From NCBI GenBank assembly GCA_963725665.1, contig CAVRZA010000003.1, positions 192,001 to 256,000 of the forward strand: a stretch of DNA of 64,000 nt, read 5' to 3'. Shown one piece after another: positions 51,149 to 61,758 of this stretch. The DNA is from an uncultured Actinomycetes bacterium (GTDB lineage Bacteria; Actinomycetota; Thermoleophilia; UBA2241). The position numbers were made by a program, and so were the translations under genes. The number at the start of each line of letters is the position of its first letter. Position 1 is the stretch's first letter. The notes below the pieces were generated by a model, which made no database searches, was not told the DNA's origin, and saw nothing but the letters and a program-made list of their open reading frames with translations.

Positions 51149-51329
51149 TTACGCAAGCGCGTCGCGCAGAGCACACGGTGCGGGTGGACGTTCGACGGAT
51201 CGCACCTCGACCTCGCTCGTCCGCGTTTCGTCGCCGTGGCGGTCCGCGGTCTGTGTCGAGGCGGTGCCGGTCGGGTACCTTGTGGCCCAGACGAAGCGGC
51301 GTGAGAAGCGATGAGGAGGTGAGGTCTGC

Positions 51330-51542
51330 TTGGCGTTGACCGTGTATACGAAGGTAGGCTGCACAGCGTGCGAGGCGCTAGTGAGAGACTTGAAGGCGCG
51401 AGACGTGCCGTATCGGCTGGTCGATATCGACCGCTCGCCCGGCGGCGCGCAGGAACTCTCTCACCTGACCGGAGGCAGGCCGACAGTGCCCACCGTAGTT
51501 GACGAGGACGGCGAAGTGCTGCTCGGTTTCGGCAACACCTGA
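51330..51542 (+). CDS. Glutaredoxin-like protein (possible C-terminal Sec)
   Basis: RBS GAGGAGGTGA; YTKVGCTAC, TVPTV, ends GFGNT-TGA. Confidence 0.8.
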   Translation: MALTVYTKVGCTACEALVRDLKARDVPYRLVDIDRSPGGAQELSHLTGGRPTVPTVVDEDGEVLLGFGNT

Positions 51543-51678
51543 GGAGGAGACCGTGGCCTGCGTCGGCGGCTCTGGCTGGCCGAACGCAGGCGTCGGCGCG
51601 CGTGACGCGCTGGATCAACTCACCAAGCGGTGCGCCGCGCAGCGCCAGTGCATCGCTTCGCTGCTCAGGCGCGACCCT

Positions 51679-51713
51679 AGGGGTGGGCGGCAAGGGACGA
51701 GCCGCCCACCCTC
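51679..51713. terminator. Hairpin between convergent genes
   Basis: GGGTGGGCGGC...GCCGCCCACCC inverted repeat. Confidence 0.6.
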
Positions 51714-51723
51714 TATGCGTCGG

Positions 51724-52507
51724 TCACGAAGGCTTGCTCGAATAGGTCGCCACGCGCCTCGCGTGTTCTTCTAGGCCGATCGGACAGGCGTCGTGACAGA
51801 TGAGGCACTCGTGGCTCCCACGCGGCGAGTAGTGTCCCGCCCACTTCTGCCAGGCCTTGTTGGGCTCGGCCAGCATCTCCTGCGGGACGATGCACTTCCA
51901 GAAGTCGACCTTCTTGCCGGGCTCCACGCCTTGCGATGGACCGGGGATGATGGCCCCCGTGGGGCAGGCCCTGACGCACAGCTCGCAGTCGCCACAGAGG
52001 TCCCTCGCGAACGGCTCGTCGTAGGGCAGAGCCGCGTCGGTGACCACGCAGCACCAGCGCACGCGCGGGCCAAGCAGTCGGGGTGACGCACAGGGTCTGC
52101 TTGCCGATCCACCCCAGACCGCCCATCGTGGCGGCGGCCTTCGCGTGCACGAAATGGGTGACGGCAGTCTTGTGCCCGGCGTCTCTCACGGCCTCTGCGA
52201 AGCGGTGAGCGCGGGCCTCGGTCAGCTCGTAGTAGAGATTGTAGTACTGCGATCCCGGCACGTCGTCGAAGGGGATGGCACCGTCGGGCAGCACGGACGT
52301 CACGACGGTGTTGAGCATCGTGTCCCAGATGTGCATGCCGAGCACGATGACGCTCTTCGCACCGTCGAGGAACCCGTTTGGCACCTCCAGGCAGCGATGC
52401 GGCGGAAACGGGACCGCAGCAAGCTTCTCGGCGTCGACGACGCCGAAGAACTCGAACCCATGGTCCGCTGCCTCGGCCCGCAATCGTTCCTTCAGGTCAG
52501 GCGACAC
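51724..52507 (-). CDS. QueG/reductive-dehalogenase-like 4Fe-4S dicluster protein (frameshift near 52075)
   Basis: AKSVIVLGM, KAAATMGGLGWIGK, CGDCELCVRACPTGAI, CLICHDACPIG. Confidence 0.82.
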
Positions 52508-52805
52508 GACACGACCTCACTTCCTCTACGCGCAGTGCGCTGGTCTAGAACCTGTCCACATGATGGCGGGCGCGGCGGCTTCGGTGCGGCCGCCTTCACT
52601 CCCTCGACGCGATCGTTGAGCGTCGAAACGTGCCTGCATGGCGGCATTATAGTCCGCGGTGCGCGGCCGTCTACCTCGCTCCAAGATGCGGGCCGTGGAG
52701 CGCTCCGAGTCCAGGGGCCACGCACACCGTCCTCTGGCAGGGCGCAGCCCGACTCGCTAGACTCCCGCTGCCGCGGTAGGGCCCTCTGCCACCGTGAAGG
52801 TCGCA

Positions 52806-53306
52806 ATGAGGCTCTTCGGCAAACCCGATATCGAGCAGATGAGGCGCGATGGCGACATCGCAGGCCTTGTCCACTGGGCTGACTTCCGTAGGGACCAGAG
52901 CCTGAGTCGCGCCGCGGTAGCGGCTTTGCGCGAGAACGTCTACGCGGTCGTGGAGCGTCTGTTCGACACCGCTGTCTGGGCTCACGCGCACAGGGGGCCA
53001 GGCCGCAGGGGTCTGTCACCTTCGGGGGTGCATCGGCTCAACGAGATCACGGTCGCCTTGCGCAAGATCGGTCCGCCCGCCGTCGCTCCTCTCGCCGATT
53101 CGGTCCGCCTGTACGGCGACTACGGGGACCCCGACGAGCACATGCGATTCCTCTACTTCGCCCTGGTCTTTGACGTGTTGCAGAAGATAGGACGTCCGGC
53201 GGCGAACGAGTTGCGTGACCTCGCCGAAGGCGCAGATCCCGATGTCCGCGAGCATGCGCAGGAGGCGTTGAGCAAGCTCGAAGCACGAGGTCAGCTTGAC
53301 GACTGA
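52806..53306 (+). CDS. HEAT-repeat-like hypothetical protein
   Basis: FGKPDIEQM..DIAGL, ALRKIGPPAVAPL, DPDVREHAQEALSKL. Confidence 0.7.
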   Translation: MRLFGKPDIEQMRRDGDIAGLVHWADFRRDQSLSRAAVAALRENVYAVVERLFDTAVWAHAHRGPGRRGLSPSGVHRLNEITVALRKIGPPAVAPLADSVRLYGDYGDPDEHMRFLYFALVFDVLQKIGRPAANELRDLAEGADPDVREHAQEALSKLEARGQLDD

Positions 53307-53519
53307 TGAAGAGGTCGTGGTCGCCGTTCGCGCATCCTGGCCCTCATCGCGGGAGTGGGCGACACTTGCTGCACGGCGGCGGCTGAAGGCCGGCTTGTCC
53401 CCTGCTGTGGCTGCCACGCCGAGCCCCGGCGATCCCTGATCCGGCGTGCCGTAGCCGACGGCACCCGGGCTTGGCAGTGAGGCTCCAGATTGCGCCACAG
53501 CGTCTTCCCTCGCATACCG

Positions 53520-53550
53520 TTGACCGGGGGGTATAGCATTGCAATAGAAT
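53520..53550 (+). promoter_or_regulatory. sigma-70-type promoter candidate upstream of mtmB
   Basis: TTGACC-N19-TAGAAT in an AT-richer patch; spacer is long and includes a G run. Confidence 0.35.
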
Positions 53551-53956
53551 TCACGTACACATTGGAGCCGTCACCGGCCGTTCGTTGGACGATGTGTCAC
53601 GGAGCGATTCGACGGGCGGCGAGGCGACTCCAACTGTTAGTTCTGCGTACGGAACCAAGGTTCGAACGCGACGGTTCCGGTCGGCATGCATTGGCGCTTG
53701 ATGGGGCGAGAACGCGATGGCTGCAAGGTCGCAGACGGATCATTCCACGTTGTCTCGAGGTCGCGTTCCCCCGCCCGGGCGGTCTCGAATCGACCGCCTT
53801 CCAGTACGACCACGGTCGTAGAACCTTTTGGCGCAAAGTGCGACAGGAGAGCGAGAGGCGTCGTTGGTCACCGCTCTCACGCCGAGGAGGTGATGTCATC
53901 CCGAGAAGGCTGACCGGCCGAAGGAAGAGCAGTGAATCCCGAAAGGAGGGAGTCAC

Positions 53957-55366
53957 GTGGCGAGAACTACCAAGGCCCTGCCCGAGCGCATGACGGTGTT
54001 TCATGCCTGGGAGCGCGCGCGGAGAGGTCCCAAGGTCGACGAGAAGACGTGGGATTTCGAGGTCATCCCCAAGACGGCGACTCGTCTGAAGGAGAAGTAC
54101 GGGATCAAGATGGACAAGAAGGTCATGATCCCGACCGATCCCGACATCATGAAGCGGCTCTACGAGGCCGGCCTCGAGATGCTCGTCGAGACCGGCGTGT
54201 ACATCATCGAGACCGGCCGTGTCGTGAAGTACACCAAGGATGAGGTGCTCTTCACCGTTGCTCAAGCGCCGAAGCACGCCATCATCGGCGAGGGGGCACT
54301 GCACTACCGGCCGCTCGTACCGAGGGCGTGGAACAGCACGACGCCGCCGATCATCCAGGGCGGCCCGACCGGCGCGCCCTGCAGCGAGCAGCACTTCCTC
54401 GGCATCCACGAGTCGTACGCCAAGGAAGGCATCGTCGACTGCATCGTCGACGGCGTGCTCGAGAAGATCAACGGCTACAACCCGGCCCCGGAGAGCCCCG
54501 CCGAGGTGTGGGCCTCCAAGCAGGAGATGTTCCTGGTCCGCCAGGCCCAGGCCAAGGCCTGTCGCTTAGGGATGGGGTTGTAGGGCGCCGAGACGCCTCT
54601 CGGGGCGGCGGCCATCGTTGCAGCCGATTTTCCCGGCGGCATGCGGGCCACTGACAACCACGAGGTGTCCCAGCTTAATGAGCTGAAGATGGAAGCCGGA
54701 GGCTGGCAATTCGTCGCTCATTACGCACTAGCTGGCGACATCATCATGGATGAGCAGATGCCCATTTTCGGCGGCTTTGCCGGTGGTCTCGAGGAGACGA
54801 CCATCGTCAACGTTGCCACCCACCTCAACGCCTTCGTCATGAACCAGGCGACCTGGCACCTCGACGGACCCGTCCACATGCGCTGGGGCAACACCACCGC
54901 CAGGGAGGTTCTGGCAGTGGCCGGCCACGGCCAGCGGGCGATCGAGGAGCATTGGCCGGATCTCATGACGGGCAACCAGTACTACCCCACCGCCGGCCCG
55001 GGCACCGTGATGTGCCTGCTAGAGACGGCGGCGCAGGCCATCACCGACACCTGCAGCGGGCGCGAAGTGGTGTCGGGCGTCGCGTCGGCCAAGGGCGTGA
55101 AGCTCGACAAGACCACCGGCCTGGAGGCGCGCTTCATGGGCGAGGTCTGCCACGCTGTGGCCGGCATGCCCCTGGACCAGATCAACGAGATCCTCGATGC
55201 TCTGGTGGCCAAGTACGAGGGTGACTACCTGACGGCGGATGAAGGCAAGACCTACGCCGAGTGCTACGACACCGACAAGGTCGTCCCCAACGATGAGTAC
55301 CTGGCAGTGTACGACGAGGCCGTTGCGATCATGAAGGATCTCGGCGTCAGCTACAAACTGTGGTAA
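53957..55366 (+). CDS. mtmB: Monomethylamine:corrinoid methyltransferase with in-frame TAG (pyrrolysine) at codon 209; 469 aa on readthrough
   Basis: ORFs 53957-54583 and 54641-55366 share one frame, separated only by TAG 54581-54583; context RLGMGL-O-GAETPL matches MtmB GRPGMG-x-O-GPETS; also QGGPTG, SQLNELK, EQMPIFGGFAGG, WHLDGPVH, GPGTVMCLLE; RBS AAGGAGGG. Confidence 0.95.
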
Positions 55367-55479: not shown

Positions 55480-56124
55480 ATGGCAAACGAGGAGTTGATC
55501 AAAGAAGCGCGTGCGGCGCTTCTTACGACCGACAAAGCCAAGGCTGAGGACGTCGCCAAACGAGCCATAGCCGCAGGCATGGATCCGGGCGATATCATGC
55601 AGAATGGCTTCGTCGCCGGCATCCGTGAGCTCGGCGAGAAGTTCGACAAGGGCGAGGTCTTCCTGCCCGAGTTGATGCTTGCGGCCGAGGCCATGGAAGC
55701 CGCCATGGAGATCTGCAACGCGGCCCTGCCCGAGGGCAAGAGCGAGACACGCGGTGTCGTCGTCATCGGCACCGTGGAGGGCGACGTGCACGACATCGGC
55801 AAGGCTGTCGTGATCGCCTATCTGCGCGCCAACGGGTACGACGTCCATGACGTCGGGAAGGACGTGCCGCCGCAGGACTTCATCGACAAGGCGGTTGAGG
55901 TCAACGCCGACGTCATCGGCGCGAGCGCTCTGCTGACGGCCACGCTGGCCGTGCAGGGCGAGATCGAGGAGTACCTCAAGGAGGCCGGCCTACGCGGCAA
56001 GTTCAAGACGATCGTGGGCGGTGCCACCTGCACGCAGGGCTGGGCCGACAAGATCGGAGCCGACGCGTACGCGAAGGATGCCAGCGACGCGCTGCAGAAG
56101 ATCGGCGAACTCGTCGGACGCTGA
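55480..56124 (+). CDS. mtmC: Cognate methylamine corrinoid protein
   Basis: B12-binding GTVEGDVHDIGK, GASALLT, IVGGA, IGADAY; directly after mtmB. Confidence 0.9.
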   Translation: MANEELIKEARAALLTTDKAKAEDVAKRAIAAGMDPGDIMQNGFVAGIRELGEKFDKGEVFLPELMLAAEAMEAAMEICNAALPEGKSETRGVVVIGTVEGDVHDIGKAVVIAYLRANGYDVHDVGKDVPPQDFIDKAVEVNADVIGASALLTATLAVQGEIEEYLKEAGLRGKFKTIVGGATCTQGWADKIGADAYAKDASDALQKIGELVGR

Positions 56125-56202: not shown

Positions 56203-56256
56203 GTATGACAGTCTTCGGACGGATTGCCGGCAAGGTTCGCGCTGAGGAGGGCAGCG

Positions 56257-57483
56257 GTGGCACAGGTCAATGCAGGAGACACAGCCTTCGTCCTCATCAG
56301 CGCCGCCCTCGTGGCGCTGATGACACCGGCTATCGCCTTCTTCTACGGCGGGCTGGTGAGGCGCAAGAACTTCTTGTCGATCATGATGCAGAGCTTCATC
56401 TCGATGGGCATCGTGACGGCCATCTGGGTCGCCGTCGGCTACTCGCTGGTCTTCTCCGGCGATGTCTGGGGCATCATCGGCAACCTCGATTGGGCCGGCC
56501 TACACGGCGTCGGCCAAGCTCCGGGTCCGTGGGCGCCGACCATCCCTGCGCTGGCGCACTTCGACTTCCAGGAGATGATCGCCATCTTCACGCCGGCTCT
56601 GATCACCGGCGCCTTCGCCGATCGGGTGAACTTCAAGAGCTACCTCTGGTTTCTCGTGCTCTGGAGCCTGCTGGCCTACATCCCGCTGGCGCACTGGGTG
56701 CGTGGCGGTGGTTTCCTCGACCAGTGGGGCGCAGAGGACTTCGCTGGCGGCCTGGTGGTCCACGTGAGCGCCGGGTTCGCTGCACTGGCGTCGGTGTACG
56801 TCGTGGGCAAGCGCAGGTTCTTGCCCGGCGAGCGTACGTTGCCGCACAACATCTCTTTCGTGGCGATCGGCACGGCCCTGCTCTGGCTCGGCTGGTTCGG
56901 CTTCAACGGAGGGAGTGCACTGGCGGCCAACGGAATCGCCGCGCAGGCATTCGTGAACACCGACATCGCGGGCTCGATCGCCATGTGCACCTGGCTTGCG
57001 CTCACGTGGCTCCGCAACGGCAAGCCGAGCCTCGTCGGCGCCCTCACGGGAGCGATCAGCGGACTGGTGTGCATCACCCCTGCGGCCGGGTTCGTCCCGA
57101 CCTGGTCGGCATTCGTCTTCGGCGCAGCCGCGGGCGTCGTCTGCTACTACGCGATAGTCGTCAAGCAGAGGATGGAGTGGGACGACGCGCTCGACGTCTG
57201 GGCGGTCCACGGTGTCGGCGGGATACTGGGCACCCTGCTGCTCGGTGTCTTCGGCTTCGCTGCGGTCAATGCCGCCGGCTCCGATGGGCTGTTGGCAGGG
57301 GACGCGGCCTTCTTCGGGGTGCAGCTCGTCTCCGCTGTGATCGCCGCCGGCTACTCCTTCGCGGTGACGTACCTGATCCTCAGGCTGCTCAACCACTTCC
57401 AGCCCGTGCGCGTGCCCGACGCCGTGGAGCAGAGGGGCCTCGACGCCGAGATGCACGGCGAGGAGGCCTACCACCTGACTTGA
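56257..57483 (+). CDS. amtB: Ammonium transporter (Amt family)
   Basis: GDTAFVLISAALVALMTP, DFAGGLVVH, WFGFNGGS, ITPAAG, DDALDVWAVHGVGG; GTG start after GAGGAGGG. Confidence 0.95.
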   Translation: MAQVNAGDTAFVLISAALVALMTPAIAFFYGGLVRRKNFLSIMMQSFISMGIVTAIWVAVGYSLVFSGDVWGIIGNLDWAGLHGVGQAPGPWAPTIPALAHFDFQEMIAIFTPALITGAFADRVNFKSYLWFLVLWSLLAYIPLAHWVRGGGFLDQWGAEDFAGGLVVHVSAGFAALASVYVVGKRRFLPGERTLPHNISFVAIGTALLWLGWFGFNGGSALAANGIAAQAFVNTDIAGSIAMCTWLALTWLRNGKPSLVGALTGAISGLVCITPAAGFVPTWSAFVFGAAAGVVCYYAIVVKQRMEWDDALDVWAVHGVGGILGTLLLGVFGFAAVNAAGSDGLLAGDAAFFGVQLVSAVIAAGYSFAVTYLILRLLNHFQPVRVPDAVEQRGLDAEMHGEEAYHLT

Positions 57484-57543: not shown

Positions 57544-58338
57544 GTGGAGAGCGAGCTTCCTACCCTGGGAGTCGAGCTTGTCGGCGATGGACTCGGCCCG
57601 TTCGACGACATCGAGTTCATTGGCAGCGGCAGGTTTGCGGAGACGTACCGCGTTGTGCGTGACGACGACGAGTACGTGCTCAAGGTCTGCCACTTCATCC
57701 CGCGCATACCGCAGGAGCTCTGGGAACATGAGCTCGAGGCGCTGCGGCGCGTGAGACACCCGAACGTCATGGCATTCCGCGCCGCAGGGCACCTGCGAGC
57801 CCAGGGCAAGACGTACCCCTTCATGGAGTGCGAGTACATCGACGGCCGCGACGTGAGAGGGATGATCGCCGCCGGGCTGCGACCGGAGGATCCGTCGGCA
57901 CTGCGGGAGTTCTTCGCAGGCCTCCTGCGCGGCGTGGCGGAGCTCCACGACCTGGGCATCCTGCATCGCGACATCAGGCCGGCCAACGTGGCCCTGCGGG
58001 GCGGCCACTGGCAGAAACCCGTGCTGCTCGACTTCGGCCTGGCTCAGACCTACGTCGTCTCGGCGGCGCAGCAGCGCCTCTCGCTGGGCGAGCGGCGGCG
58101 GGATCTTGTTGCCCTCGCCGAGGTCGTGTACGAGGTCGGGGCGGGACGACCTCCCGTCCACGAACCACGGGCCGCCCGGACCCTCGCCACGCGGGTGCGG
58201 CGGCGTGCTCTGGTCGACCCACGCAGGCTCTCGCCGCTGTTCGCGGACGACGTCGCCGAGGTCGTCGTCCGTCTGTTGTCTCGCGGGCAGTCGCGCTCGG
58301 GGGCCGATGAGGCGTTGCGAGAGCTGGAGGAGTCCTAG
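57544..58338 (+). CDS. Ser/Thr protein kinase-like protein with reduced C-lobe
   Basis: IGSGRFAETY, VLK, HPNV, HRDIRPANV, LDFGLA; no APE motif. Confidence 0.75.
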   Translation: MESELPTLGVELVGDGLGPFDDIEFIGSGRFAETYRVVRDDDEYVLKVCHFIPRIPQELWEHELEALRRVRHPNVMAFRAAGHLRAQGKTYPFMECEYIDGRDVRGMIAAGLRPEDPSALREFFAGLLRGVAELHDLGILHRDIRPANVALRGGHWQKPVLLDFGLAQTYVVSAAQQRLSLGERRRDLVALAEVVYEVGAGRPPVHEPRAARTLATRVRRRALVDPRRLSPLFADDVAEVVVRLLSRGQSRSGADEALRELEES

Positions 58339-58460: not shown

Positions 58461-58711
58461 GCGCGCATCCTCGCACGATACGCCCATCGGGGCCCCAAAG
58501 CCCGCCGTCGAAGGGGGATGGTGTCGTACGGGTCTCTCAGGCTCGATGAGGGGAGGTCGCCAGACGAGAGCTTCCGCACCCAGTGAACGCTGAGGGCTCG
58601 GCAAAAGCTGCCGGCCCCTCACCCGCCTCGCTCTCCCGAAACCGCGCGTCTGTCGCGCCGCCGGAGGAGGTCGGGCGGGCCGACCATTTCGGGCAAGTGA
58701 AAGGGGGACAC

Positions 58712-59125
58712 TTGAGTCGTACCGAAGCCGACCTCGCCGTCGAGCAAGCTGTCGCTGCCGAGGCGAAGAGAGGCACCCACGATCCACGCATCGAGAAGAC
58801 GTACCGACGGGACGTGATCACGATCTACACGTTCGTGATCGCCCTGTTGTTCACACTCTGGGCAGTGTTCTTCTTCGTCGTGAATCCCAACGTCCAGGAC
58901 AACACCCTGCGCTGGCTCATGATCGGCCTGGGCATATTCGCCTCCGTCTTCAACGCCACGGGGATGATCCAGAACACCCGGCGCCTCAAGCAGGAGGCGG
59001 TACGCTTCTACTCCCAGGACCTGTTCTGGCAGGACCAGAAGAAGCTGCAGAAGGAGTACGCGAAACAAGAGCACGAGATGTACCTGAGGCAGAAGAACGT
59101 GGACAAGGGGGCGACCGATGCCTGA
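58712..59125 (+). CDS. Small two-TM membrane protein (permease cluster gene 1)
   Basis: TTG after AAGGGGG; two hydrophobic helices; coding-like codon usage. Confidence 0.75.
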   Translation: MSRTEADLAVEQAVAAEAKRGTHDPRIEKTYRRDVITIYTFVIALLFTLWAVFFFVVNPNVQDNTLRWLMIGLGIFASVFNATGMIQNTRRLKQEAVRFYSQDLFWQDQKKLQKEYAKQEHEMYLRQKNVDKGATDA

Positions 59126-59883: not shown

Positions 59884-61276
59884 TGGCAGCTGAAGCGCCT
59901 GCGGTCACCGCCGCAAGACCGAAGCGCCTGAGCCTGCTGCGCGTCCTCGGCCCCTGCACATCTGGGGTCTCGGCGTGGGCATCGTGCTCGTGGGCGAGTT
60001 CATGGGTTGGAACTTCACGGTGGCCAAGGGCGGAGTGTTCGGCGCGCTCGTCGCCTGCTGGTTCAGCGGCATCCTCTACTCCTGCGTCGCCATGATCGAC
60101 TCCGAGGTGAGCTCGACGGTGGCCTCGGCCGGTGGCCAGTACGCGCAGGCGAAGCACATCCTCGGCCCCTCGGCCGCCTTCAACCTGGCTCTGTTCATCA
60201 TCTTCGAGTACGTGATGCTCGAGGCCGGCGACGCCATCGTGATCGGCGCCATCATGGAGAAGCTCAGCGCGAACTTCAGCGCGACGGCCTGGGTCATCCT
60301 GACCATCGCCATCCTGTCGTTCCTCAACTACCGCGGCGTGACGTTGGCGCTGACCGTCAACTACATCATCACGGCCATCGCCTTCATCACGATCCTCCTC
60401 CTCCTCTTCGGGAACTGGGGGAACTTCTTCACCCAATACCTATTCACGGCCGATATCGGCGGCAGGAATCCCGAGATGCCGTACGGCTGGCTCGGCATCC
60501 TCGCCGCGCTGCAGTTCGGCATCTGGTATTACCTGGGCATCGAAGGCACCTGCCAGACGGCTGAGGAGTGCCGCTCCGCTCCGCGCGCGCTGCCGATCGG
60601 CACGATGTCTGGGCTCGTCACGCTGCTGATCGCCGCCACCATCACCTGGTACGTCGCTACCGGCCTGGTCGACTGGGTGACGCTCGGATCATCGGCGTAC
60701 CCGCTCTACGACGCGGCGCTGAACACGAGTAAGGACTGGCTCATCGTGGCGCTGTTCATCGGCACTGTGTTGAGCTGTCTGGCGTCGGCTAACGGCTGCA
60801 TCAACGACGCCTCGCGGGCCTGGTTCGCCATGGGACGCGACCAGTTCGTGCCGCGCTTCTTCGGCGGCGTGCACCCGCGCTACAAGACGCCGTACCGCTC
60901 GATCCTGTTTCTGATCCCCATCGCCATGGCCTTCGGGTACACGGGGTTGCTCGACCAGGTGATCACCTTCTCGATCATCTCGGGCTGTTTGATATACGCC
61001 GTCATGCCCCTCAACATCATCCGTTTCCGCAGGCTCTATCCGATGGGCTCCATCAGGCGGGGCTACGTCTACCCCTTCCATCCCTGGCCGGCGTTCGTGC
61101 TCGCTCTCTTCGTAGCGCTCACGTTCATCGCCGTCTACTTCGGCTACTGGCGCAACCTGGTCGGGGCCATGGCCTTCTATATCCTCGCCTCGATCTGGTT
61201 CACCTTCCACCGCTACAGGATGGTGGATCGCTCCAAGCTCTACACCATGCCCTGGCCGCGGCCTAAGGGATACTGA
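59883..61276 (+). CDS. APC-superfamily amine permease, putative methylamine permease (frameshift near 59955)
   Basis: LLRVLGP/HIWGLGVGIVLVGEFMGWNF, SAGGQY, WYYLGIEG, ASANGCINDASR, HPRYKTPYR; about 12 TMs. Confidence 0.88.
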
Positions 61277-61302: not shown

Positions 61303-61758
61303 ATGTTCGAGACGATACTAGTAGCAACAGATGGCTCGCACTCGGCGGGGAAGGCCGTCGACTTCGCGGTGGAGCTCGCCAAGAGCCATGGTTCCAAGCT
61401 CGTGATCTGCACCGTCACACGAGAGCGGCTGGCGACGATCGACAGGGACCCCGGCGAGCCCAATCCGCCCGACGTCGACCCGAGAGCATCGCTGAGTCGC
61501 GGTCAGGCCGACCAATCGGCGGAGGTTCTGCGCCGAGGCGAGCAGGCGGCCAAGGCAGCGGGCCTGGGGAACTACGATCTGCGCGAGATCTACGGCACGA
61601 ACACAGGCGCCACCATCGTGAAGGAAGCCGAAGCGATGGGAGCCGACCACATCGTCGTCGGCTCTGTCGGGGAGACCGGCCTCGCCAGGCTGCTCATGGG
61701 TTCCGTGGCGGCGAGCGTGGTGCATCACGCCCACTGTCCGGTGACGGTGGTGCGGTAA
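61303..61758 (+). CDS. Universal stress protein
   Basis: ILVATDGS, IVVGSVG, MGSVAASVVHHAHCPVTVVR. Confidence 0.93.
   Translation: MFETILVATDGSHSAGKAVDFAVELAKSHGSKLVICTVTRERLATIDRDPGEPNPPDVDPRASLSRGQADQSAEVLRRGEQAAKAAGLGNYDLREIYGTNTGATIVKEAEAMGADHIVVGSVGETGLARLLMGSVAASVVHHAHCPVTVVR

Follow-up and report, generated by a model that had tools for sequence, protein, structure and literature searches.

The window, a stretch of 64,000 nucleotides in which all coordinates below are given, carries at 53957-55366 a single reading frame on the plus strand, which runs from a GTG start at 53957 to a TAA codon at 55364-55366. This frame, mtmB, heads a cluster in which mtmC, an Amt transporter and, further downstream, a permease follow. 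The features of the locus are listed here.

53944..53949, plus strand: Shine-Dalgarno sequence AGGAGG, 7 nt 5' of the mtmB GTG, read from the sequence
53957..55366, plus strand: mtmB, monomethylamine:corrinoid methyltransferase (PF05369), 469 codons with one in-frame TAG and a TAA end
54578..54580, plus strand: TTG, a rare Leu codon, immediately before the Pyl codon; a candidate context element whose function is putative
54581..54583, plus strand: TAG codon, assigned to pyrrolysine (residue 209) by alignment to M. barkeri MtmB1
54581..54680, plus strand: stretch matching Rfam PYLIS_1 by sequence (57.8 bits), the RNA structure being unsupported
55480..56124, plus strand: mtmC, cognate corrinoid (B12-binding) protein (Pfam B12-binding and B12-binding_2; TIGR02370 pyl_corrinoid)
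56224..57483, plus strand: Amt-family ammonium/methylammonium transporter (PF00909, 372 bits; TIGR00836, 418 bits against a cut-off of 343)
57544..58338, plus strand: short gene for a kinase-like protein of 264 aa (PF00069, 65 bits, confined to the N-terminal region of the profile)
58583..59125, plus strand: orf180, with no Pfam or NCBIfam match
59975..61276, plus strand: APC-family permease, candidate monomethylamine permease, MtmP-like (PF00324, PF13520)
61303..61758, plus strand: universal stress protein (PF00582, 115 bits)

The initial annotation had described two same-frame ORFs parted by one TAG, together with a 469-aa read-through product and the context RLGMGL-TAG-GAETPL, and it had suggested comparing this product with the MtmB family model and with the Pyl site. 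Re-reading the frame, we found exactly one internal stop, the TAG at 54581-54583, and the same product and context. Specifically, the joined product matches the Pfam MtmB family with 633.2 bits (E 3e-190), and the match extends end to end, residues 12-463 corresponding to profile positions 1-449 of 450; a search of NCBIfam returned no model matching MtmB. In addition, the structures of M. barkeri MtmB1 (PDB 1tv2/1l2q) match the read-through product with an E value of 1.4e-151, and in the structure-sequence alignment the TAG lies opposite residue 202 in chain 1tv2_A (as counted along the alignment), which is the Pyl position.

Downstream of mtmB, the product of mtmC scores 228.9 bits against pyl_corrinoid (cut-off 215.3), and mtmC directly follows mtmB in 7/7 loci of the host's family. 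The Amt protein would act in methylammonium uptake or NH4+ export. Matches of the kinase-like gene to NCBIfam kinase models are weak, all of them under the cut-offs. A homologue of orf180, 56-60% identical, is found directly after mtmC in two relatives (G084 and G065). In Thermincola, a 58% identical homologue of the permease is flanked by the two mtmCB copies. The nearest gene for a pterin-binding methyltransferase (C3:264225-265139) lies about 17 kb from mtmB, on the same contig and outside the operon.

The TAG is the sole in-gene TAG, in one shared column, in all 26 Pyl-type MtmB genes compared (the host's own, 10 family copies, 4 from other bacteria and 11 archaeal). The host genome also carries two TAG-less MtmB paralogues, scoring just 227-298 bits, with Tyr or Ile at the Pyl column and the G-x-ET motif lost; mtmB retains both the UAG and this motif, which also sets it apart from non-Pyl superfamily members such as the MtgB-type MttB homologues. 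The one-TAG mtmB copies of the 10 other family genomes are 68-73% identical to that of the host and form with it one clade in which the host copy is basal (SH-like support 1.0), in a tree that agrees with the structure of the family. The nearest MtmB proteins outside the host's class, from Thermincola and from a Thermodesulfovibrionales MAG, reach 62-63% identity. PylSc was found in 43/46 sampled genomes of the family and one-TAG mtbB in 27/30. As judged from these gene comparisons, the Pyl trait is real and common to the host's family as a whole, with evident purifying selection over time.

A search of the genome for the pyl genes, which had also been suggested, recovered the whole set: the assembly, 97.5% complete, contains tRNA-Pyl(CUA), pylSc, pylSn, pylB, pylC and pylD, with every protein gene above its curated cut-off (PylSc, TIGR02367, 314.6 bits against 178; PylSn, TIGR03912, 119.9 against 51; PylB, 448 against 348; PylC, 339 against 248; PylD, 212 against 150). 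The tRNA-Pyl(cta), located by ARAGORN at C6:343702-343774, has the 6-bp anticodon stem, the 3-nt variable loop and the 5-nt D loop that are hallmarks of tRNA-Pyl. The genes pylB-pylC-pylD-pylT form one contiguous unit; pylSc and pylSn lie 45 kb away from it, on opposite strands, and between these two are a corrinoid-protein gene and a radical-SAM gene.

Besides mtmB, 13 more methylamine methyltransferase genes of the genome bear a TAG, 14 in all, and the TAG occupies one column per family in 8/8 mtbB and in the 5 mttB genes; about 25 TAG-less genes of the MttB family are also present. The expectation that bacterial Pyl occurs mainly in MttB thus does not apply to this host, whose Pyl codons are distributed over 8 mtbB, 5 mttB and 1 mtmB. 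The proposal that the host decodes UAG as the 22nd amino acid, on the other hand, is supported by the alignment of the Pyl site and by the full pyl gene set, and from these observations we infer that pyrrolysine is inserted at the mtmB UAG, a codon most likely decoded in this way by the host. Monomethylamine:corrinoid methyl transfer by MtmB, and pyrrolysine in the mature protein, are predictions made from sequence.

RF1 is kept in the genome and TAG terminates about 39% of the genes (908/2355 filtered ORFs). Therefore, the decoding of UAG appears to be ambiguous or conditional, and, if decoding is not under regulation, a truncated MtmB of 208 aa must arise as well. TAG-ended genes showed no backup stops behind them: the next TGA/TAA follows at a median of 64 codons after TAG versus 55 after TGA. 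A Pyl-linked depletion of TAG was likewise absent in a comparison of one genome of each kind, which amounts to no statistical test: TAG makes up 26.9% of the stops in a sample from a Pyl-less genus-mate (G018; 400 kb, 242 ORFs). The corresponding shares are 34.8% in a genus-mate with Pyl (G014; 204 ORFs) and 38.7% in the host. Since many genes of the host truly end in TAG, we propose that the pyl genes may be conditionally expressed.

A stem-loop 3' of the UAG, named PYLIS, has been proposed for archaeal mtmB and is not required according to a review (PMC8211752). The match of the host to PYLIS_1 remains under the gathering score of 70, and in the host as well as in all 13 bacterial relatives (46-79 bits in the latter) the matches begin at the TAG. 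The pairing is not maintained in the 13 bacterial sequences, with 59.5% of cells paired versus a shuffle mean of 62.4%; no covariation is supported among them, a single double change being observed, and the host fold at this stretch is not unusual (z-score -1.5). We therefore rejected a PYLIS element and read the matches as conservation of coding sequence. Since PYLIS is no defining feature of Pyl decoding, the assignment of the host to the Pyl-decoding organisms stands despite this result.

The codon directly 5' of the TAG showed a different picture. TTG accounts for 5.6% of Leu codons genome-wide; of the 14 Pyl genes of the host, 10 have Leu at position -1, and 9 of these 10 use TTG. UUR occupies this position in 14/14 bacterial mtmB genes, and the -1 codon is UUG (or UUA) Leu in the mtmB and mtbB genes of the family and AUA Ile in mtmB of Methanosarcinales. 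With the other conserved columns of the same alignments as a same-tree control, the -1 codon is under site-specific synonymous constraint. Avoidance of CTAG was considered as the source of this bias and rejected, because CTG-TAG and ATT-TAG make no CTAG and yet are absent, while GTC-TAG occurs. A non-exhaustive search, which included the available parts of PMC12626013, PMC13663744 and PMC8211752, returned no earlier report of a rare -1 codon before a Pyl-UAG.

As a tentative idea, which we put forward with more doubt than confidence, Pyl-UAG codons could be marked by an overlooked cis signal directly on their 5' side, a rare codon that is fixed there and is served by a minor tRNA. The minor tRNA in the P site, or a pause, might weaken RF1 at the A-site UAG and so favour Pyl-tRNA. 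If true, the rare codon would help to explain how full-length Pyl enzymes are made in a genome with so many TAG-ended genes and no PYLIS element. In any case, the fixed rare -1 codon offers a simple hypothesis, open to direct test, on a long-standing question: how a Pyl-UAG gains preference over a stop-UAG.

Among the alternatives to active decoding, the one that survives best holds that the genes are intact and that Pyl decoding is inactive or very inefficient, so that mostly truncated MtmB would be made by a relic system. The heavy use of TAG as a stop with no backup behind it is compatible with this, as is the dispersal of the pyl genes outside a single cassette; a complete and yet non-functional Pyl set has moreover been described in an archaeon, the B. 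weybense genes having failed to complement (PMC12626013). We nevertheless consider a relic improbable, as fourteen genes keep their TAG under evident purifying selection across genera, the fixed rare -1 codon makes sense only if UAG is decoded, and expression of Pyl-encoding mttB and mtbB by Actinobacteriota MAGs has been reported from peat (Ellenbogen et al. 2023; PMC10805028).

It is less plausible still that the mtmB block or the pyl genes come from another organism, through mis-binning or a chimeric contig, and that the host itself is without Pyl decoding. The assembly consists of 12 contigs with an estimated contamination of 5%, and a 2.8-kb stretch of atypical composition (window 51150-53950) lies between trmD and mtmB; its three ORFs have no Pfam match, and the stretch has no Rfam match, no repeat within the genome and no nucleotide similarity in the flanks of relatives. 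Against a foreign origin, mtmB shares its 299-kb contig with ffh, rpsP and trmD, the family relatives carry the same genes and the MtmB tree fits the family. A chimeric join is also unlikely because the Pyl-related genes are spread over several contigs, with TAG-bearing methyltransferase genes on C1, C2, C3 and C4 and the pyl set on C6 (578 kb), and these contigs are alike in composition (GC 0.68).

Equally implausible, finally, is the view that the TAG is a nonsense mutation or a sequencing error and mtmB a pseudogene: TAG is indeed a frequent normal stop in a genome with RF1, but here it sits at the catalytic Pyl column of every homologue compared, 13 other genes show the same pattern, the product matches its family model at full length, both halves have a GC3 (0.90 and 0.85) usual for genes of the host genome and are thus no chance ORFs, and the site is spanned, with at least 31 letters on either side, by contigs from three other studies (X5, X6 and X13). 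No substitution falls at 54581-54583 among the differences listed (40 of 236), which lends weak support to the codon. RNA-library contigs (X13) cover mtmB, a type of coverage that is no proof of transcription. The runs holding mtmB are peat, wetland and soil metagenomes.

The host had been described as actinobacterium-like. Actinomycetota are marked by an insertion of about 100 nt in domain III of the 23S rRNA, in the region of helix 54; a large insert of this kind was not found in model positions 1160-1844 of the host, which are colinear with a largest insert of about 22 nt near 1763, the whole gene measuring 3001 nt versus 2925 model positions. WhiB (PF02467) is absent from all 41 genomes of the host's family and class (0/41), with a positive Corynebacterium control, and a search for Spo0A, made for the same placement, was negative. 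The Ffh protein of the host is 71% identical to that of a MAG titled 'Actinomycetes bacterium', and 55-62% to those of two Firmicutes and of a Thermodesulfovibrionales MAG; by coordinate matching, genomes from the host's own family and class are among the relatives listed for the 'Actinomycetes bacterium' MAG. Since Coriobacteriales have been reported without any actinobacterial signature genes (PMC4255298), the absence of WhiB leaves Coriobacteriia possible. The actinobacterium-like description is therefore plausible in its kinship to a MAG filed by NCBI under Actinomycetes, and is not backed by WhiB or the 23S insert; these data fit, and do not prove, a Coriobacteriia-like deep branch.

Taking these results together, it is very probable that window 53957-55366 is a functional mtmB whose single internal UAG is translated as pyrrolysine, with the machinery described above and the following methyl route. 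The host would make Pyl from lysine by PylB, PylC and PylD, and the split synthetase PylSc plus PylSn would charge it onto tRNA-Pyl(CUA), allowing the ribosome to insert Pyl at UAG in competition with RF1. Pyl209 would then activate monomethylamine so that its methyl group passes to the Co(I) corrinoid of the neighbouring MtmC, with release of ammonium. A pterin-binding methyltransferase of the MtgA/MeTr type would move the methyl group to tetrahydrofolate, from where it may enter the Wood-Ljungdahl pathway to give acetyl-CoA or be oxidised. Activases of the RamA/RACo type would re-reduce the oxidised corrinoid, and the Amt transporter and the APC permease would import the substrate and/or export ammonium. 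Genes for AcsB, RACo/RamA and pterin-binding methyltransferases were found in the genome, and AcsB together with the latter points to Wood-Ljungdahl as the sink for the methyl groups; their route and the roles of the transporters are putative.

By comparing this system with those already known, it appears closest in its enzyme to M. barkeri MtmB1, the founding Pyl enzyme (PDB 1NTH, 1L2Q, 1TV2-4), which belongs to the same family over its full length. The host MtmB is about 51-53% identical to the copies of Methanosarcinales, its UAG has the same place in G-M-G-x-Pyl-G-x-E-T, and the cognate corrinoid protein adjoins in both. Unlike M. barkeri, the host is bacterial, has its PylS in split form and lacks methanogenesis; the methyl acceptor is presumably THF with the Wood-Ljungdahl pathway rather than CoM, the gene order is mtmB-mtmC versus the M. 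barkeri-type mtmC-mtmB, TAG is a common stop, and the -1 codon is UUG for Leu instead of AUA for Ile. In its machinery, the host resembles the Pyl systems of Firmicutes and Deltaproteobacteria (Desulfitobacterium, Acetohalobium arabaticum, Thermincola, Bilophila), which share the split pylSc/pylSn, tRNA-Pyl(CUA) and pylBCD and keep TAG as an ordinary stop. It differs from them in the dispersal of its pyl genes, which in Desulfitobacterium form a contiguous pylTScBCDSn cassette, and in a much larger load of Pyl genes, 14 with 8 of them mtbB. In A. arabaticum, Prat 2012 reportedly described TMA-dependent expression.

Pyl in Actinobacteria is already published, and the system of the host is of a known kind. 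According to Guo et al. 2022 (PMC9630628), every bacterial PylRS has the PylSn+PylSc form, and two Actinobacteria are among 81 bacterial PylRS genomes. The host lineage may already be listed in the supplements of PMC10805028 or PMC9630628. In the parts available, these accounts of Actinobacteriota do not deal with mtmB (the term 'mtmb' has 0 occurrences in PMC10805028), family-wide conservation, gene layout or codon context.

In conclusion, Pyl-dependent use of mono-, di- and trimethylamine would be a lifestyle conserved throughout the family, in an anaerobic bacterial lineage of high GC that lives in peat, wetland and soil. This methylamine capacity is invisible in routine annotation, because standard gene calling splits all 14 Pyl genes. 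The genome would also serve well as a natural example of ambiguous UAG decoding, with RF1, a common TAG stop and neither backup stops nor a PYLIS structure. In its habitats, the host lineage probably competes with methylotrophic methanogens for methane precursors.

The initial annotation had described the monomethylamine methyltransferase gene (mtmB) as two ORFs in one frame, split by a single TAG and giving 469 aa upon read-through. Rereading of the window sequence confirmed both this description and the coordinates:

53957-55366, + strand: mtmB, GTG start, TAA end, one internal stop

Specifically, a Shine-Dalgarno sequence (AGGAGG) lies 7 bases upstream of the GTG, the frame is interrupted by a single stop codon (TAG, 54581-54583, context RLGMGL-TAG-GAETPL), and the two halves of the gene show GC3 values of 0.90 and 0.85, the strong third-position GC bias typical of the host's real genes. 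When aligned to the MtmB family, as had been proposed, the 469-residue read-through product gave a full-length Pfam match (633.2 bits, E 3e-190, profile 1-449 of 450), and it matched the M. barkeri MtmB1 structures 1tv2 and 1l2q with E 1.4e-151. The TAG stands opposite residue 202 of the M. barkeri chain by our own count, which is the pyrrolysine (Pyl) position. In addition, the sole in-gene TAG falls in one common column in all 26 MtmB genes aligned (the host gene, 10 family copies, 4 other bacterial and 11 archaeal genes), while two TAG-less MtmB paralogues of the host carry Tyr or Ile in this column and have lost the G-x-ET motif.

These paralogues are full-length (C11:266044-267399, +, and C4:197079-198440, -; 298 and 227 bits); a third TAG-less copy, at C4:222297-223123, is fragmented, and similar TAG-less copies occur in the relatives G096, G074 and G100. 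Contigs from three other studies (peat, wetland and soil) bridge the TAG site of mtmB, and no change at the TAG appears among the differences listed for them, which lends weak support to its authenticity.

The decoding genes that the initial annotation called for, namely pylT(CUA), pylSc, pylSn and pylBCD, were all found in the host genome (3.73 Mb, 12 contigs, GC 0.68, completeness 97.5%, contamination 5%), in which the window corresponds to C3:192001-256000, the proteins scoring above their cut-offs:

C6:343702-343774, - strand: tRNA-Pyl(CUA), 6-bp anticodon stem, 3-nt variable loop, 5-nt D loop
directly upstream of tRNA-Pyl, same strand: pylD, 212 bits (cut-off 150)
upstream of tRNA-Pyl with pylD and pylB, same strand: pylC, 339 bits (cut-off 248)
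upstream of tRNA-Pyl with pylD and pylC, same strand: pylB, 448 bits (cut-off 348)
C6:296212-297084, + strand: pylSc, 314.6 bits (cut-off 178)
C6:298890-299291, - strand: pylSn, 119.9 bits (cut-off 51)

The pylSc and pylSn genes, on opposite strands and with a corrinoid-protein gene and a radical-SAM gene between them, lie about 45 kb from tRNA-Pyl and pylBCD, so that the gene set is complete but dispersed. Pyl insertion in the host MtmB is predicted. The release factor RF1 is kept (490 bits, cut-off 423).

The PylSc match of the family member G010 (51% complete), at C9:10153-10875, contains one in-frame TAG, so that the gene could be a pseudogene, the TAG an assembly error, or PylS itself Pyl-dependent. 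A RamA/RACo-type corrinoid activase gene of the host (C11:277489-278214, -) contains one in-frame TGA, as does its homologue in the relative G003, and a tRNA-Sec(TCA) is located at C11:550041-550138; the activase may be a selenoprotein, and the host would then employ the 21st amino acid in addition to the 22nd.

The host carries 14 Pyl genes in total, on contigs C1 to C4. Besides mtmB, eight dimethylamine methyltransferase (mtbB) family genes have one TAG each in a single column (DGL-TAG-VGxGD), and five trimethylamine methyltransferase (mttB) family genes have it in another common column (AGx-TAG-GDxK); a sixth MttB match was rejected, its TAG being only an upstream stop. A chimeric join is argued against by the distribution of Pyl genes over several contigs, by uniform composition and by the fact that the 299-kb mtmB contig also carries ffh, rpsP and trmD.

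A second Pyl cluster (locus L117, C3:259379-263501) starts 3.4 kb beyond the window end and comprises an mtbB with one TAG, an MtbC-like corrinoid protein and an APC permease; beyond it, on the opposite strand, comes a pterin-binding methyltransferase gene (C3:264225-265139). One of the eight mtbB copies, at C2:503975-505331, directly after another at C2:502569-503924 and thus a tandem duplicate, is frameshifted near its 3' end (profile 4-402 and 403-462 in different frames).

TAG also serves as an ordinary stop. Among 2355 host ORFs, which are crude GC3-filtered calls and not gene predictions, TAG ends 38.6%, TGA 55.8% and TAA 5.6%; no earlier backup stops were found behind the TAG-ended ORFs (median 64 vs 55 codons), and 4 of the 14 Pyl genes use TAG as their own terminal stop. 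TAG makes up 26.9% of stops in a Pyl-less genus-mate sample and 34.8% in a Pyl-bearing one, which gives no indication that TAG is depleted. The host is similar in this respect to Pyl bacteria like A. arabaticum, whose code expansion is reportedly conditional. An Rfam PYLIS_1 match beginning at the mtmB TAG (57.8 bits, gathering score 70) was rejected as an RNA element: its pairs are not maintained across 13 bacterial sequences and its fold is unremarkable, and the match reflects coding conservation.

The codon directly 5' of the Pyl-TAG (-1 codon) is under constraint. In the host it is TTG in 9 of 14 Pyl genes, that is, in 9 of the 10 with Leu there, TTG and TTA representing 5.6% and 0.3% of the 92,835 host Leu codons. 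UUR occupies this position in every one of the 14 bacterial mtmB genes (TTG 11, TTA 3). Among 33 distinct mtbB genes of the family, all 30 with Leu at -1 have TTG there, and the other three have TAC; TTG accounts for only 3.8% of their 1681 other Leu codons, and the Gly and Val codons flanking the Pyl site vary synonymously. In 67 archaeal mtmB genes, ATA is found in 52/52 Ile cases (12.4% of 1973 other Ile codons), with no codon bias in the 15 Val cases.

Because the genes are related, the -1 column was compared with every other conserved Leu/Ile column in the same alignments. TTG is fixed at -1 alone of 22 Leu columns in family mtbB (next highest 19%), and ATA at -1 alone of 20 Ile columns in archaeal mtmB (next highest 39%; 53/53 under slightly different de-duplication). 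In bacterial mtmB, UUR is also fixed at one other Leu column, +41 from the Pyl codon (13/13; TTG 11, TTA 2), where the host, by residue count, is apparently the sole sequence of 14 lacking Leu. CTAG avoidance was rejected as a cause, since it cannot explain the bias. A literature search brought up no earlier account of such a rule. We hypothesise that a rare -1 codon could favour Pyl-tRNA over RF1.

The counts over relatives come from samples of related genomes and are not independent trials. Of the 46 genomes sampled from the host's GTDB family, 43 have a PylSc above the cut-off, against 7/46 in a second family and 0/158 across ten other families of the class. One-TAG mtbB occurs in 27/30 other family genomes (1-11 copies each). 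The mtmB gene is patchier: 10/88 other family genomes have one-TAG copies, 11 in total at 68-73% identity, and two further ones have fragments. In the MtmB tree (FastTree, LG+gamma), the family copies group together with support 1.0, the host's copy being basal among them. This clade is sister to a class-mate MAG (0.999), and next to Thermincola plus Thermodesulfovibrionales (0.992); it is separate from Methanosarcinales. Thus mtmB is old and mostly vertically kept in the lineage.

The mtmB of a Tissierellaceae MAG (L094, 2011-bp contig) nests inside the Methanosarcinales clade and not with the bacterial copies, which points either to recent transfer or to an archaeal contig that was binned wrongly. 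PylSc, mtbB and mtmB are all missing from G009 and G018, two nearly closed genomes (1.7-1.8 Mb, 1-2 contigs, 98% complete) of the otherwise Pyl-rich genus g10 in the host's family, which suggests that the entire Pyl lifestyle was lost secondarily along with genome reduction.

The view of the host as actinobacterium-like is plausible. Its Ffh is 71% identical to that of a MAG titled 'Actinomycetes bacterium', among whose relatives, matched by coordinates, are genomes from both the host's family and its class. WhiB was found in 0 of 41 family and class genomes searched, and no large insert was seen in the host 23S rRNA (positions 1160-1844); Spo0A was not found in the host. Chandra and Chater (PMC4255298) state that Coriobacteriales are devoid of every actinobacterial signature gene, and a deep-branching class of Actinomycetota resembling Coriobacteriia would be consistent with all of this.

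Pyl in Actinobacteria is already published, and the host's system belongs to a known kind. Of the 81 bacterial PylRS genomes counted by Guo et al. 2022 (PMC9630628), all of split type, two belong to Actinobacteria, a figure repeated in PMC11764691; peat Actinobacteriota MAGs express Pyl-encoding mttB and mtbB (Ellenbogen et al. 2023, PMC10805028), and such genes are frequently misannotated (Kivenson and Giovannoni, PMC7593587). The passages compared are silent on mtmB in the host lineage, on Pyl being nearly universal within a single bacterial family, on the scattered arrangement of the pyl genes, on the inverted mtmBC order and on the -1 codon rule; one review states that a cis context for Pyl-UAG was not found. 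The host lineage may already figure in supplements of published Pyl surveys.

Upstream of mtmB, the 2.8 kb separating it from trmD (window 51150-53950; GC3 0.66-0.76) lack an ORF of usual coding signature. Neither Pfam nor Rfam matched this stretch, which is not repeated anywhere else in the genome and resembles nothing in the flanks of relatives. Downstream, the locus continues as follows:

downstream of mtmB, + strand: mtmC, cognate corrinoid protein, TIGR02370 above cut-off
downstream of mtmC, + strand: Amt-family transporter, 418 bits
57544-58338, + strand: kinase-like gene, 264 aa, N-terminal half of protein kinase domain only (65 bits)
after the kinase-like gene, + strand: orf180, no family match
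between orf180 and the APC permease, + strand: two small ORFs
downstream of the small ORFs, + strand: APC permease, 58% identical to a Thermincola homologue
after the APC permease, + strand: universal stress protein

The order mtmB-mtmC is found in 7/7 family loci, whereas mtmC precedes mtmB in the class-mate MAG, Thermincola, a Thermodesulfovibrionales MAG and archaea. The Thermincola permease homologue sits between that organism's two mtmCB copies, and two family genomes likewise have orf180 after mtmC. At the matching position in G084 and G065 the kinase-like ORF and amt are missing, orf180 standing directly after mtmC; the kinase-like ORF itself matches a methylation-associated defence-system kinase only weakly (73.5 bits, cut-off 460).

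The host also encodes AcsB, next to a RACo activase and an AcsE-like pterin-binding gene; another RamA-like gene and two more pterin-binding genes are present as well, one of the latter at C3:264351-264965. From these and the locus genes we infer a route from methylammonium to the Wood-Ljungdahl pathway: methylammonium would be taken up by the putative transporters, MtmB(Pyl) would methylate Co(I)-MtmC, and a pterin-binding methyltransferase would form methyl-THF, which would then enter the Wood-Ljungdahl pathway.
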